A stretch of 24,000 nucleotides of DNA from Sulfuriferula sp. (GCA_031291235.1 JARLJL010000022.1:458355-482354); one strand, 5' to 3'. Counted from the stretch's first letter, positions 12,844 to 17,551 are shown. Numbers and translations: made by a program. Notes: generated by a model from the sequence alone, not told the origin.

Positions 12844-12922
12844 GCCGTAACGTGAAGCTAAGGGGCGCGCCAAAGGCGCGTCCCAGCGACCAAAGGGAGC
12901 GAACTTGAGCGTAGGGTTAGCC
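12844..12922 (-). repeat. attC of cassette 6 (distal end of array)
   Basis: gccgtaac-gtgaa-gctaagg-ggcgcgccaaaggcgcgtcc...cttgagc-gtagg-gttagcc. It resembles the attC at 13411-13470 but carries a 19-nt insertion and degenerate cores. The TAA stop of the cassette ORF lies inside the GTTA core. Confidence 0.7.
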
Positions 12923-13405
12923 CACACGTTTTCGGACCCCAGCATAGGAAAATATGGGTACGCAGACAAGCACCAATAATAAACCAGCCAAGCGTTCGCC
13001 AAGATACTCACTTGCATTTCCCCAAACATGAACACTAGGTTCACTGGGAATATATGTGACAAGCCCTGAATCTCCCGCCTTTATTGCCTCGCACGTTGGA
13101 TTGCCATATCCATCAGAGCCTAGCTCATTAACGATAGTGGTGCCGACCGAGAACTGATAGCGAATATGGTGCTTTTCACCTTGCCGACAATCAACTTCGA
13201 CTACTCGTGCGGGAGCACTAATGCCTGAAGTTGTTAACCAGAGGTAAGGCAGCATGTTGCCAAGAAACATGGCGAACACAGATGCCGTAGTGACGATTGC
13301 AATTGCGAGGGGTGAATGTTGCCGATAGTACCAATACAACCCTAACGCCACGCCAACAGAGCCCAAGGAAAATAGGAGAATCTGAAATACGTTCAGGATG
13401 TTCAT
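12917..13405 (-). CDS. DUF3592-like membrane protein (cassette 6)
   Basis: 162 aa with N-terminal TM helices, a beta-rich segment (ARVVEVDCRQGEKHHIRYQFSVGTT...) and a C-terminal TM helix, which is the DUF3592 layout. It fills the cassette 12851-13416. Confidence 0.65.
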   Translation of the reverse strand: MNILNVFQILLFSLGSVGVALGLYWYYRQHSPLAIAIVTTASVFAMFLGNMLPYLWLTTSGISAPARVVEVDCRQGEKHHIRYQFSVGTTIVNELGSDGYGNPTCEAIKAGDSGLVTYIPSEPSVHVWGNASEYLGERLAGLLLVLVCVPIFSYAGVRKRVG

Positions 13406-13410
13406 GTGGG

Positions 13411-13470
13411 GGCTAACGTGGAGCTAAGGGGCGCCGCTTCGCGGCGTCCCGCTTGAGCGTAGGGTTAGGC
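13411..13470 (-). repeat. attC of cassette 5
   Basis: GGCTAAC-gtgga-GCTAAG-gggcgccgcttcgcggcgtccc-gCTTGAGC-gtagg-GTTAGGC. This is the canonical R/L box structure with one extrahelical base in the L box pair. Confidence 0.85.
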
Positions 13471-13488
13471 AGACGTTGATGCATACGA

Positions 13489-13782
13489 TTACTCTCCATA
13501 TGTATTGAGAGCCAAGAATACACCAATGTAAAGCGAAACGAACGTAGCCAAACCTGCGCAGAATACCCACAACCCCTCTCGATATAAAGCCGAAGCTAAC
13601 CATTTTGTTTTTAGAAGAACCAAGAGATATGCAGCAAACGCAAGAATCGAAGAAACACCAAGCCAGAGAGCCATCAAAAAACCAGAAGGCAAGTTGAGGC
13701 CAAAGAATTTAGTGCCATATGCCGTAAAGAGGAAAGCGACATGAATGCAGGCGACCAAAACGATTTGCGCAATCAACTTCAT
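13489..13782 (-). CDS. Hypothetical polytopic membrane protein (97 aa, cassette 5)
   Basis: ORF with 3-4 hydrophobic helices that fills the cassette 13417-13796. Its ATG lies 8 nt after the GTTAGGC core. I recognise no family. Confidence 0.55.
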   Translation of the reverse strand: MKLIAQIVLVACIHVAFLFTAYGTKFFGLNLPSGFLMALWLGVSSILAFAAYLLVLLKTKWLASALYREGLWVFCAGLATFVSLYIGVFLALNTYGE

Positions 13783-13790
13783 GGGGGTAT

Positions 13791-13857
13791 GCCTAACGTT
13801 TGAATTGAGCGGCCTGCGCGGCTTTTCGCGCAGGTCCGCTCGAATGATGGGTTGGGC
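13791..13857 (-). repeat. attC of cassette 4
   Basis: GCCTAAC ... cctgcgcggcttttcgcgcagg ... GTTGGGC. The central hairpin is shared with the attC sites at 14194, 15062 and 15913. Confidence 0.85.
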
Positions 13858-13890
13858 ACATGGTCTCTCAGTTTCCTTTTCGCTTGGCTT

Positions 13891-14118
13891 TCACAAGCTC
13901 ATCAGCGGGCTAAGCCCGGAAGGGAGGTGGCGCTCCCAAAACACGATGACGTGGTTGATGATACGTTTTGCATATGCCATTACCTCACAAACTGCCTTCT
14001 TGACCATAAGCAAACCCTCCTTTCGAGTTGAAGATAGACGAGCAATTACTTCCGTGATTACAAATCCTAGCCAGAAGCTGGTAGGGCCAATAACTACATG
14101 AATAAAGCCTGCCATCAT
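13891..14118 (-). CDS. Possible small membrane protein (75 aa, cassette 4)
   Basis: This is the only minus-strand ORF fully inside cassette 13797-14199 besides a TTG-started 62-aa ORF. It has an N-terminal hydrophobic helix. An internal AAGGAGG-N8-ATG could instead give a 38-aa product. Support is weak. Confidence 0.3.
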   Translation of the reverse strand: MMAGFIHVVIGPTSFWLGFVITEVIARLSSTRKEGLLMVKKAVCEVMAYAKRIINHVIVFWERHLPSGLSPLMSL

Positions 14119-15633: not shown

Positions 15634-15881
15634 TCGCTATGTTTGGAACTGATAGCACTACGCCACGCTGCTTCAGTCCCGGAGCGGATAACGAACAATC
15701 TATCTCCAGAAGCCAACACCTCTTTTAGGTGGTCGCGAATTTCAGCAGCTTTTTGGTCCGTGACGATCGCCCAACAGGTGTTATTAATCGGACAGTACTT
15801 CGGGTACGTCTTAAGACGCTCCCGTAAGCTCTGCCGAACAGCAAGCTGTTTTGCTTGAAAAGAAACGATGTAACAGGTCAT
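15612..15881 (-). CDS. Hypothetical small soluble protein (89 aa, cassette 2, proximal gene)
   Basis: Clean ORF inside cassette 15068-15918. Its stop is at 15612-15614, overlapping or abutting the start of the two-TM ORF. It opens MTCYIVSF and looks like alternating strands and helices. I recognise no family. Confidence 0.6.
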   Translation of the reverse strand: MTCYIVSFQAKQLAVRQSLRERLKTYPKYCPINNTCWAIVTDQKAAEIRDHLKEVLASGDRLFVIRSGTEAAWRSAISSKHSEWLKKNL

Positions 15882-15912
15882 TGTATAAATGTACCGTGTA
15901 TTTTGTACATAA

Positions 15913-15982
15913 GGCTAACGTGGTGGTAACCGGCGCTGCGCGGCTTTATCGCGCAGCGTCCGTGTTGACCGCAGGGTTAGAC
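15913..15982 (-). repeat. attC of cassette 1
   Basis: GGCTAAC-gtggt-ggtaacc-ggcgctgcgcggctttatcgcgcagcgtcc-gtgttgacc-gcagg-GTTAGAC. Confidence 0.85.
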
Positions 15983-16048
15983 CTCTGGCGGCCGCAAAGA
16001 AAGCGTTGCGCCTGCGCGATGAAGCTAGAGAGCCGATAAGTTTGCGCA

Positions 16049-16348
16049 CTAGCTCTCCTCGGTTCCCGCAACCAAGCGTTCAACCGTAGCCAAGAAGGCA
16101 GGCATTTCACTGAAACTCCCACCAAACCGTTCTCGAACCAAAGGCCCTTGATCCTTCCATTGGCCGGGAGCGCTTTCCACTTGAAGGAGACCGTGCCTCT
16201 CCTTTCCATCCCACACCAGGCGGAATCTCGGACCGCGCCCGGCAAATACGGCATAGGCAGAACCAAACGCCTCGGGGTTCAAGTGTTCTTCCACCAAGGT
16301 TCCACCTGCGCCACGGACAACTTCGCGGAGAGACGAGTACGCGTGCAT
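16049..16348 (-). CDS. Hypothetical protein (99 aa, cassette 1, attI-proximal)
   Basis: ORF starting 5 nt after the attI crossover core. It is visibly more GC-rich than the neighbouring cassettes. I recognise no family. Confidence 0.55.
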   Translation of the reverse strand: MHAYSSLREVVRGAGGTLVEEHLNPEAFGSAYAVFAGRGPRFRLVWDGKERHGLLQVESAPGQWKDQGPLVRERFGGSFSEMPAFLATVERLVAGTEES

Positions 16349-16353
16349 AAGAG

Positions 16354-16411
16354 GTCTAACGTGAAATATACACCGATTCGGTGTATATTAAATTCTCAAA
16401 ATCGGTGTATA
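16354..16411 (-). other. attI region: crossover core GTTAGAC (minus strand) plus three copies of a 10-12-bp box
   Basis: gtctaac (16354-16360) is the boundary of the first cassette. A perfect 25-bp palindrome AATATACACCGA-t-TCGGTGTATATT lies at 16365-16389. A third copy, TCGGTGTATA, lies at 16402-16411. Confidence 0.65.
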
Positions 16412-16564
16412 ACACGAATTCTCCCAACAAATTTCACGACCACATATCATAGACACTAGATCAGAAAATATTTAAAAAATAATTATTATCAATAATATAA
16501 ATAACAAACCAATAATTTTTTATGAATTCTGTTTTACGTTGATTAAGCTAGATAGGCACCTATA

Positions 16565-17551
16565 TTGGAAAATACAAACACACCTATTTTTACCTCTCCA
16601 AAACTACTCGATCAGGTACGCAATCTCATTAGGGTCAAGCATTACAGCATCCGTACAGAAACGCAATATGTGCAGTGGATAAAACGTTACATTTTATTTC
16701 ATAACAAGCGCCACCCGAGCGAAATGGGTGCAACGGAAGTTGCATCATTTTTGACTCATCTGGCGGTATCGGGGCATGTCTCATCCTCTACCCAGAACCA
16801 GGCGTTGTCTGCGATACTGTTTCTATATCGGGATGTACTGGGGGTGGACCTTCCCTGGTTAAAAGACGTGGTACGAGCCAAACAGCCGCAGCGTTTACCG
16901 GTGGTATTGACGCGTACAGAAGTGAGGGCAATTCTCGCCCGGATAAAAGGTGCACATGGTTTGATGGCACATTTACTATACGGTACTGGCATGCGTTTAA
17001 TGGAATGTGTGCGTCTGCGAGTGAAAGATGTGGATTTTGAACGCCTTGAAATTTTAATCCGCGATGGCAAGGGAGCGAAAGACCGCATCACCATGCTGCC
17101 GGATTCTATTGCGCCCCTACTGCAGGCGCATTTGGTACAACGGCGTGTATTATTTGACGACGATGCGCGCATGGGTAAGGTTTCAGTTTATTTGCCCGAT
17201 GCACTGGCGGTCAAATATCCTAACGCACCTCAAGAATGGGGCTGGCAATACATTTTTCCATCCGGCAGCTTTTCTGTTGATCCGCGTAGCGGCGTGGAAC
17301 GGCGACACCATATTGATGAGAAACTATTACAACGCGCGATGAAAAAAGCCGTGCAGGAAACTGGCATACCCAAGCCGGCAACGCCCCATACTTTGCGCCA
17401 CTCATTTGCTACACATCTACTGGAATCAGGTTACGATATTCGCACCATACAAGAGCTCCTGGGACATGCAGACGTGGCTACGACAATGATTTACACGCAT
17501 GTACTGAACAAAGGCGGGCGCGGTGTGACTAGCCCGCTGGATCAATTATAA
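16565..17551 (+). CDS. intI: Integron integrase IntI (tyrosine recombinase)
   Basis: 328 aa, collinear with IntI1 by eye ([65 protein letters not shown]). It carries the IntI-specific insertion [21 protein letters not shown]. All catalytic R-K-H-R-H-Y positions are present. It has a TTG start with no clear SD. Confidence 0.95.

Follow-up and report, generated by a model that had tools for sequence, protein, structure and literature searches.

A small chromosomal integron of Sulfuriferula sp. with a cassette bracketed by two predicted hammerhead ribozymes

Chromosomal integrons are found in Beta- and Gammaproteobacteria, the integron of Nitrosomonas europaea and the Vibrio cholerae superintegron being two examples. 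Here we consider a stretch of 24,000 nucleotides (nt) from Sulfuriferula sp. (GCA_031291235.1 JARLJL010000022.1:458355-482354), hereafter the window, whose positions are counted from its first letter and in which positions 12,844 to 17,551 hold an integrase gene (intI), an attI site and six cassettes with their attC sites. Like the N. europaea integron and the V. cholerae superintegron (VchIntIA), this integron has an IntI with the integron-specific domain, divergent from attI, and, as in the chromosomal integrons of these two classes generally, the cassettes are attC-bounded, promoterless, on one strand and mostly of no assigned function, with toxin-antitoxin genes nearby; it differs from them in that the array counts only six cassettes and has two attC subtypes common to other genera. 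With the class 1 mobile integron (IntI1) it shares the same platform logic, but it has no Tn402/tni, no qacEdelta1/sul1 and no resistance cassettes, and its IntI is 56% identical to IntI1. The integron is of a known kind and the variant part is cassette 4, where a 75-codon open reading frame (ORF) is bracketed by two hammerhead ribozyme motifs. The best explanation overall, and one that we hold with considerable confidence, is a complete chromosomal integron with a ribozyme-processed cassette 4.

Several systems resemble this cassette. Tornado is an engineered, synthetic design for circular RNAs flanked by ribozymes, with the geometry of an RtcB-type ligase substrate. Retrozymes are eukaryotic retroelements with repeated type I/III hammerheads, whose self-cleavage gives an RNA with base-paired ends that bear a 5'-OH and a 2',3'-cyclic phosphate, again the substrate of an RtcB-type ligase (PMC4918200, PMC7229834). 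The predicted features of cassette 4 include the same layout, two ribozymes of self-cleaving type flanking an RNA with base-paired ends, but the cassette is bacterial, natural and DNA-encoded, and its circularisation is hypothetical. In prophages, clustered hammerheads flank single genes and cleave both in vitro and in E. coli (Perreault et al. 2011, PMC3088659). In these clusters, as in cassette 4, a single gene is enclosed within one transcript by hammerheads of different types, type II among them. They differ in that the cassette 4 module is an integron cassette, also found in defence-island-like contexts; ribozymes overlapping the ends of the ORF, an excluded stop codon, paired ends and a Shine-Dalgarno sequence with its AUG (SD-AUG) in mid-ORF are all absent from the prophage report. 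Finally, zeta viruses are viroid-like circular RNAs with endless ORFs; they lack a DNA form, both polarities encode an ORF and contain a ribozyme, and permuted or endless translation has been proposed for them (bioRxiv 10.64898/2026.09.16.752053). Cassette 4 is like them in having a unit length that is a multiple of three, no stop, and type II and type III hammerhead motifs that overlap the coding sequence, and unlike them in being DNA-encoded with both ribozymes on one strand and in not being an autonomous replicon. In the incomplete literature set that was searched, we found no work linking self-cleaving ribozymes to integron cassettes and no report of a natural bacterial DNA-encoded circular mRNA flanked by ribozymes.

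Hammerhead motifs and coding sequence of cassette 4

The original prediction, made by a model from the sequence alone, had taken cassette 4 as simply another membrane-protein gene and had missed the two hammerheads on either side of its ORF. The module comprises the following features (here and below, a slash within a coordinate pair or motif marks the point of cleavage, crossover or junction):

13797..14199, minus strand: cassette 4, with hammerhead II, the 75-codon ORF, hammerhead III and attC4
14103..14167, minus strand: type II hammerhead (Rfam RF02276), predicted cleavage after C14144 (14144/14143)
13875..13923, minus strand: type III hammerhead (Rfam RF00008), predicted cleavage after C13919 (13919/13918)
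13919..14143, minus strand: inter-cleavage segment, 225 nt, 75 codons, no in-frame stop
14113..14138, minus strand: 5' arm of the predicted terminal helix (RNAalifold), overlapping the 3' half of hammerhead II stem I and the CUGAUGA core
13924..13951, minus strand: 3' arm of the predicted terminal helix (RNAalifold, minimum-free-energy fold, duplex energy)
14005..14021, minus strand: internal Shine-Dalgarno AGGAGG (14021-14016), 8-nt spacing, in-frame AUG (14007-14005), recognised by conservation

The type II hammerhead of the window scores 46 bits against RF02276 (gathering score 37, E=1.2e-6) and its core is complete (CUGAUGA, GAA, A15.1-U16.1 and C17); in all homologous loci this hammerhead is found at 30-46 bits. 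The type III hammerhead was recovered in a permissive Rfam scan (13918-13879, minus strand; RF00008, 31 bits, E=7e-4). Both motifs lie on the cassette strand with a complete catalytic core, and both are present in every homologous locus with sequence available, about 21 distinct loci obtained from the DNA of protein homologues, from a metagenome scan anchored on the second ribozyme and from one IMG/VR contig.

The stems are conserved as structures. For eight distinct homologues, the pairing of the named structures holds in 95.8% of cells, against 35-43% with slid partners, and five pairs are changed on both sides, against 0-1 in the slid controls. Stem III of the type II hammerhead contributes three of the double-change pairs with 100% of its cells paired (GCAC with GUGC becoming, for example, GUAC with GUAC), and stem I of the type III hammerhead covaries in two sequences, CGGGC with GCCCG becoming CAGGC with GCCUG (G-C to A-U). 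The type III core is invariant but for position 7 (U, A or C), the one position that is free in hammerheads; the encoded residue becomes M, K or T accordingly. Variation confined to this position is what a constraint on the RNA predicts, and not what a constraint on the protein predicts.

That the hammerhead matches are incidental, in what would be an ordinary small membrane-protein gene, is a reading to which we give very little credence. It can draw on the score of the type III match in the window, which falls below the Rfam gathering score of 48.5, as do all its homologues (28-43 bits), and on the purifying selection that acts on the ORF; stem III of the window copy, with 4 bp followed by mismatches, likewise counts against a true type III ribozyme. 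Stem III has 7 bp in loci L082, L086 and L090, L082 giving a full-length match of 43 bits. Against incidental matches stand the retention of both motifs in all of the ~21 DNA homologues, the fixed peptide signatures in ~80 protein clusters, the covarying stems, the M/K/T changes that fall exactly on the one free core nucleotide, and the rarity of the motif, a hammerhead descriptor scan having given one control match in 1 Mb. This reading is already contradicted by conservation.

The descriptor scan returned 35 matches, about 24 of them on this family and about eight, all weak, elsewhere. We had considered that hammerheads might be common integron cargo and rejected this, since the scan, which took in ~1 Mb from 80 related integron loci, gave only weak and probably false matches outside the family. 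A different use of the same ribozyme is seen at locus L103 (minus strand, core at reverse-complement ~7066), where a lone hammerhead III has the same stem II, a stem I of ~51 nt and a 7-bp stem III, with no hammerhead II within 700 nt upstream.

The ORF is laid across the two ribozymes: it starts inside the core of the first, where CUGAUGAUGG reads CUG AUG AUG G, and ends with a UGA in the loop of stem II of the second. It has 12 close homologues, and a profile search leads to 82 clusters at 50% identity. Across this wider family, an N-terminal signature, M(M)AG, corresponds to the first ribozyme core and a C-terminal signature, HLP[SY]R.SLL[MKT]SL, to the second ribozyme, and an AET signature, derived from GCCGAAAC, appears in homologue ORFs that were called too far upstream. 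The ratio of non-synonymous to synonymous change (dN/dS) in the ORF frame is 0.25 in the N-half and 0.42 in the C-half, against 0.75-1.18 in the other frames, which indicates purifying selection in both halves. The protein of 75 amino acids (aa) is a short helical hairpin with one hydrophobic helix, and its AlphaFold model has two helices at a pLDDT of 63, too weak for a fold search. Its first AUG has no Shine-Dalgarno (SD) sequence and lies inside both the ribozyme core and the terminal helix. The internal SD-AUG is kept with the same spacing in at least 15 of the 19 DNA homologues, and the internal methionine is invariant in the full-length members read from the ~80 protein clusters, where the surrounding sequence is variable.

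The UGA of the ORF (13893-13891) is outside the 225-nt segment, the second cleavage site being 27 nt before the stop. The distance between the two sites is 225 nt in 15 loci and 222, 228, 204 or 141 nt in others; in locus L100 it is 256 nt, owing to a surplus T within a T9 run (255 nt without it), and the family motif continues in the shifted frame. In every intact member the length is a multiple of three and one frame is open all round.

RNAalifold predicts that nt 6-31 of the segment pair with nt 193-220 in a terminal helix of ~26 bp, leaving 5-nt tails outside it, UCUCA at the 5' end and CCUUC at the 3' end. This helix is part of the minimum-free-energy fold in seven of eight homologues, and its duplex energy in the window is -42.8 kcal/mol, against -20.8 +/- 3.9 with shuffled partners (z = -5.6). 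On 19 sequences 89% of cells pair, against 35-53% when slid, and the 141-, 204- and 228-nt members form the helix in a register of their own.

Fate of the cassette 4 RNA

It is very probable that both ribozymes cleave the array transcript, as the gene-flanking hammerheads of prophages do (PMC3088659). Hammerheads II and III would cut at 14144/14143 and 13919/13918 and would release an RNA of 225 nt with a 5'-OH and a 2',3'-cyclic phosphate, carrying the coding sequence without its stop codon, and the terminal helix of ~26 bp would hold the two ends of this RNA side by side. From the motifs and their conservation, the helix, the coding signal and the internal SD-AUG we infer this self-cleavage and two possible fates of the fragment: an RtcB-type ligase would join its ends into a circle, or it would persist as a linear RNA locked by fold-back.

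The linear fate, in which cassette 4 gives a ribozyme-processed mRNA that never becomes a circle, is a serious possibility to which we give somewhat less than an even chance. Hammerhead II would here trim away the upstream array RNA, leaving a 5'-OH, and the helix would lock the first AUG and protect the ends, for which the fold-back inhibition of hok mRNA is an analogue. Hammerhead III would remove the stop and act as an off-switch, the resulting non-stop mRNA being handled by transfer-messenger RNA (tmRNA), and only transcripts that escape cleavage would yield the hydrophobic 75-aa protein, which may be a small membrane toxin contributing to retention of the array. This agrees with the linear ORF, whose start and stop are intact in all members, with the short hairpin and single hydrophobic helix of its product, with the presence of toxin-antitoxin and defence genes as neighbours in other arrays, with the lack of any junction-spanning product among those searched for (see below), and with the prophage hammerheads that flank genes, which cleave and for which no circles or spliced products were detected (PMC3088659). 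It accommodates less easily a first AUG that has no SD and is buried in the hammerhead core and the 26-bp helix, an only good SD-AUG that stands in mid-ORF, although the half upstream of it has the strongest coding signal (dN/dS 0.25), and a cleavage site 27 nt before the stop of an ORF under selection, which is hard to explain.

A circle would explain the exclusion of the stop, and would also explain why the only good start lies mid-ORF while the upstream half is clearly coding. We nevertheless put forward only tentatively, as a rather unlikely outcome, a natural bacterial circular mRNA that would arise by excision and RtcB-type ligation, be started at the internal SD-AUG and be translated across the junction. 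The predicted junction is CCCUUC/UCUCAG, within the 24-mer GCCACCTCCCTTCTCTCAGAGGTG; ribosomes that start at the internal AUG would cross it into the 'N-terminal' half and would make either a circularly permuted protein or a membrane protein that repeats in tandem without end. Paired ends with short tails, such as the terminal helix would provide, are what an RtcB-type ligase takes as substrate. The terminal helix, the coding signal in both halves and the internal SD-AUG count here as features that are independent of the segment length.

Other observations speak less well for the circle. The multiple of three is not independent evidence, because the linear ORF links the two cores and the stem-I hairpins are of fixed length (22 and 13 nt). 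Double compensatory changes in the terminal helix are few (four pairs, for example A-U to C-G in L098 and G-C to A-U in L096) and no more numerous than in the slid controls, and its 5' arm is also constrained by hammerhead II, so that the covariation evidence for this helix is modest. A search for permuted proteins in a collection of 5.8 billion found none that spans the junction (HLPS/LRGG); short circles are rarely assembled or gene-called, and this null result neither supports nor excludes circles.

Two additional routes were considered and rejected. We dismissed a chimeric hammerhead that the circle would rebuild with the internal 'CGAAAGGAGGG', because its GAA is not conserved in L092 and L095 and no stem II partner was found in the window copy. 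Self-ligation of the circle by the hammerheads was dismissed by reasoning, as the halves that it needs would leave with the flanking fragments.

Integrase, recombination sites and class of integron

The recombination platform and the six attC sites are as follows:

16565..17551, plus strand: intI, integron integrase, TTG start, 328 aa
16354..16411, minus strand: attI, core GTTAGAC at 16354-16360, crossover G/TT at 16360/16359
16465..16492, minus strand: candidate cassette promoter (Pc), TTGATA-16-TATTTT, pointing into the array, a weak 9/12 consensus match
15913-15982, minus strand: attC1 (RYYYAAC...GTTRRRY, fold, covariance model)
15062-15129, minus strand: attC2 (RYYYAAC...GTTRRRY, fold, covariance model)
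14194-14259, minus strand: attC3 (RYYYAAC...GTTRRRY, fold, covariance model)
13791-13857, minus strand: attC4 (RYYYAAC...GTTRRRY, fold, covariance model)
13411-13470, minus strand: attC5 (RYYYAAC...GTTRRRY, fold, covariance model)
12844-12922, minus strand: attC6, terminal, with an insertion of ~19 nt in its central part

All these elements of a complete six-cassette integron, intI, the attI core and the six attC sites, were found where the original prediction had placed them. The intI product matches the NCBIfam model TIGR02249 'integron integrase' at 488.8 bits (cut-off 265), with model positions 1-315 all matched, and aligns end to end with VchIntIA, the V. cholerae integron integrase (PDB 2a3v; E=2.7e-96). 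On this alignment the catalytic residues are R144, K169, H275, R278, H301 and Y310, the counterparts of VchIntIA R135, K160, H267, R270, H293 and Y302. The integron-specific additional domain (ALAVKYP...W227...H248H249) is present, and the residues by which VchIntIA holds the extrahelical bases are retained (W227, H248-H249 and P240). R166 occupies the position of VchIntIA W157, where IntI1 presumably has an arginine as well. We could confirm in this way that intI keeps every catalytic residue and the IntI-specific insertion, as had been claimed, and no inactivating change was seen in the full-length protein. The start codon is TTG, without a clear SD, and is ATG at the same place in a close relative (L003).

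The attI core, GTTAGAC on the cassette strand, adjoins intI in divergent orientation, again as predicted. Beside it lies a perfect 12+12 palindrome, AATATACACCGA-T-TCGGTGTATATT (16365-16389), and a further, third copy, GGTGTATA, is found at 16402-16411; these are candidate IntI-binding repeats by their position. An architecture of RYYYAAC/GTTAAGTAGACACC-N5-GGTGTATATTAAATT..GGTGTATAA is kept upstream of intI in seven related integrons, and we read the core and repeat layout as the probable attI of this IntI clade with accessory binding repeats. The 25-bp palindrome and the third repeat (16365-16411) are next to the attI core and share sequence with a promoter-like site of the plus strand (16361-16389), an arrangement that could couple IntI binding to intI expression.

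All six attC sites show, on the minus strand, the order R'' (RYYYAAC), 5-nt unpaired spacer, L'', GC-rich hairpin, L', spacer and R' (GTTRRRY). Each L'' has one extra C on the cassette (minus) strand, which is an extrahelical G on the plus strand (6/6), the base by which the polarity of the site is set, and single-stranded DNA folding finds the plus (bottom) strand more stable than the top strand at every site (6/6). Because of this G and of the greater fold stability, the plus strand is taken as the recombinogenic bottom strand, in agreement with the position of intI. The same folding gives the canonical bulged hairpin for attC1 to attC5; attC6 has an atypical centre, and its R/L boxes stay unpaired in the minimum-energy fold. 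Our covariance model was built from the window's own six sites, and the scores in the window (47.6-84.2 bits on the minus strand, the next best match in the 24 kb having 20.9 bits) are therefore circular. The independent part is the search of related integrons, in which, with intI oriented on the plus strand, every match was on the minus strand upstream of intI, in regularly spaced arrays (six matches in L005, five in L019 and five in L017). The boundaries of the cassettes were recomputed by hand from the G/TT crossovers, and the six intervals equal those given originally.

IntI would recombine attI (G/TTAGAC, 16360/16359) with the folded bottom (plus) strands of the six attC sites, and transcription of the cassettes, on the minus strand, would begin at a promoter in the spacer between attI and intI. 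That the integron is functional would follow from its intact parts and from standard integron biology. A sigma-70 consensus scan of the attI-intI region found no strong Pc, the best match being 9/12 and the number of such sigma-70-type matches being three against 1.4 expected, so that the candidate Pc is weak, and no LexA box (CTGT-N8-ACAG) was found near intI. With no LexA box there and with one-mismatch matches in the window at the expected number (six against six), SOS control is unsupported.

We consider it improbable, given the state of its parts, that the integron is an inactive relic with a dead integrase or attI and a frozen array. The array is short, attC6 is aberrant, the TTG start has no clear SD and there is no LexA box, and a decayed attC-like site (7073-7135) with cassette-like small genes at 4100-9100 suggests past decay nearby; yet IntI is full-length with every catalytic and extrahelical-base-binding residue, attI is conserved and five attC sites fold canonically. 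The decayed site, on the minus strand, has a good R' (GTTAGGC) and L' and a broken R'', scores 20.9 bits and lies directly after a minus-strand ORF. The region 4100-9100 is of lower GC content and is packed with small minus-strand cassette-like genes (YbjQ, GNAT, ABM, pyrimidine-dimer glycosylase and tautomerase); it may be a fossil array, with the cytochrome b561 and two-component genes lying between it and the live one. Two other RYYYAAC/GTTRRRY pairs were taken as chance, both missed by the attC model: the pair at 4681-4753 is wholly inside the GNAT ORF (4597-5184), and that at 5128-5213 overlaps the start of the same ORF and extends ~29 nt beyond.

The flanks of the integron are chromosomal. 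On the array side are a response regulator and a histidine kinase, the array ending 115 nt from the histidine-kinase gene, and on the intI side are a MazE/MazF pair, an M18 aminopeptidase, YkuD, a deaminase, Mla genes and others. A Logan contig (L001) has an identical intI, the same right flank and the same first cassette and breaks inside attC1. The M18 aminopeptidase is also found beside intI in two Methylotenera contigs and in Nitrosomonas eutropha (L033, L044 and L011). Among species-representative genomes the nearest IntI is 83% identical and belongs to a Methylobacter metagenome-assembled genome, followed by those of Burkholderiales, Glaciimonas, Crenothrix, Nitrosomonas and Thiobacillus; identity is 56% to IntI1 and 61% to the best plasmid-borne relative. 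The pair directly past the 3' end of intI (17591-18123, minus strand), outside the array, consists of a MazF-like toxin (PemK_toxin, 7e-24) and a MazE-like antitoxin (7e-31), and the same pair also follows the identical intI of L001.

The occurrence of cassette 4 and of these attC types in many genera is the one point that would suit a mobile integron of the class 1-5 type on a transposon or plasmid, which we regard as extremely improbable. Such an integron would have an IntI near-identical to a class reference together with a transposon or plasmid; here IntI is at the distances from IntI1 and from plasmid relatives just given, no transposition genes are present in the window, Pfam and other profile searches found no resistance genes among the cassette ORFs, as originally claimed, and the flanks consist of housekeeping genes and recur without change in a second sample. 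Because of these flanks, this shared neighbourhood and an IntI only 56% identical to IntI1, the element is a small chromosomal integron of a beta/gammaproteobacterial clade and not of a mobile class.

The original prediction had gone further and taken the homogeneity of the attC sites as typical of sedentary chromosomal integrons rather than mobile ones. The chromosomal site, without transposon or plasmid backbone and shared by relatives, and the exclusion of a mobile class both stand; homogeneity is weaker than was said, the sites falling into two subtypes with 68% mean column identity that are also found in the arrays of other genera (Thiobacillus, Halothiobacillus and Sulfuricella among them), and six cassettes are few for a classical sedentary integron, in which tens are usual. 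Strict 'sedentary' status applies only partly. Because the attC types and cassette 4 recur in other arrays, the sites represent a cassette pool shared by this IntI clade and not a strain-specific array. As a complete chromosomal integron, the locus is of a known kind, one more from a poorly studied clade.

Other cassettes and distribution of the ribozyme module

The ORFs of the five other cassettes, as in cassette 4, are all on the minus strand:

15919..16359, minus strand: cassette 1, ORF 16049-16348, 99 aa, no family; attC1
15068..15918, minus strand: cassette 2, two overlapping ORFs; attC2
15612-15881, minus strand: first ORF of cassette 2, 89 aa, phrog_1090 (function not known), 1.7e-13
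15124-15633, minus strand: second ORF of cassette 2, 169 aa, two transmembrane (TM) segments, acidic GGDE-repeat tail
14200..15067, minus strand: cassette 3, ORF 14287-15027, 246-aa TIR/SEFIR protein; attC3
13417..13796, minus strand: cassette 5, ORF 13489-13782, 97 aa, three TM segments; attC5
12851..13416, minus strand: cassette 6, ORF 12917-13405, 162 aa, three TM segments; attC6

The cassette 3 protein matches Pfam TIR_2 (1.4e-20) and SEFIR (1.1e-13), and also the PADLOC model bSEFIR (PDLC03957; 266.6 bits, E=1.7e-79) over profile positions 35-241 of 412. Its family is widespread, with more than 2000 homologues of ~246 aa. On these profile matches, cassette 3 is classed as a bSEFIR/TIR defence-type gene; it resembles the single-gene bSEFIR anti-phage defence in the SEFIR/TIR part of the model and differs from it in length, 246 aa against a 412-position profile matched only at positions 35-241. 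Among the other cassette ORFs, searches against Pfam, NCBIfam, PHROGs and PADLOC gave phrog_1090 for the 89-aa ORF as the sole match. Products without a recognised family had been predicted for most cassettes, which holds, with the exception of cassette 3, whose defence-type gene had been missed. Hydrophobic segments are present in four of the seven cassette ORFs, the number of membrane proteins originally counted. The cargo, of non-resistance type, consists of small proteins of no assigned function, including several membrane proteins, together with a bSEFIR/TIR gene and a ribozyme module.

The two ORFs of cassette 2 overlap by 22 nt and may form a two-gene module. Within the 169-aa ORF, a 12-nt tandem repeat (15184-15247, 5.3 copies, 96% matches) encodes the acidic (GGDE)n C-terminal tail and could be a region of variable length.

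Cassette 4 recurs with its attC in many unrelated metagenomic arrays. About half of the module loci are true integron cassettes, with an R' box just upstream and an attC just downstream, and arrays that hold the module reach eight attC sites (L082). The module of L107 carries a different attC type, and divergent members have no adjoining attC. In L098, a module of 228 nt (7042-7270, minus strand) lies ~100 nt upstream of a gene for a 2155-aa NACHT/STAND protein (470-6937) on the same strand, with an HD-domain gene upstream of the module, and in L092 the module is near a CAP12/Pycsar-type TIR gene; these NACHT/STAND and TIR neighbours suggest an association of the module with defence islands.

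A copy from a cultured isolate is found on plasmid p1 of Acidithiobacillus caldus MTH-04 (L108, 2985-3150), just downstream of the gene for a 615-aa site-specific integrase; it consists of hammerhead II, the N-half and the SD-AUG and is cut by an IS21 insertion, and the record has a second matching place. In L085, group II intron domains (3945-4256, plus strand) follow an attC match (3794-3863) within a cassette array, D1D4-3 (131 bits) preceding D1D4-1 (49.6 bits); with this unusual order of the two intron models, the element is possibly a group IIC intron that targets attC, or else a permuted one. In L083, a JUMPstart RNA element (2409-2446, plus strand, 46 bits) lies ~600 nt upstream of the module, the upstream genes being on the opposite strand.

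The IntI clade described here spans genomes of methylotrophs, nitrifiers and sulfur oxidisers, and the defence-type gene of cassette 3 fits the present understanding that integrons store genes for adaptation and defence. As a cassette, the hammerhead-ORF-hammerhead module is genuinely mobile, and its architecture is conserved. What hammerheads do in bacteria has been asked since 2011, and this family of ~80 clusters offers a compact, testable system in which to ask whether bacteria have circular mRNAs derived from ribozymes, or whether ribozymes serve as built-in switches of small toxic proteins. If the circle is real, the module would be a DNA-encoded counterpart of the endless ORFs of the zeta-virus type, mobilised as an integron cassette and found also beside defence genes.

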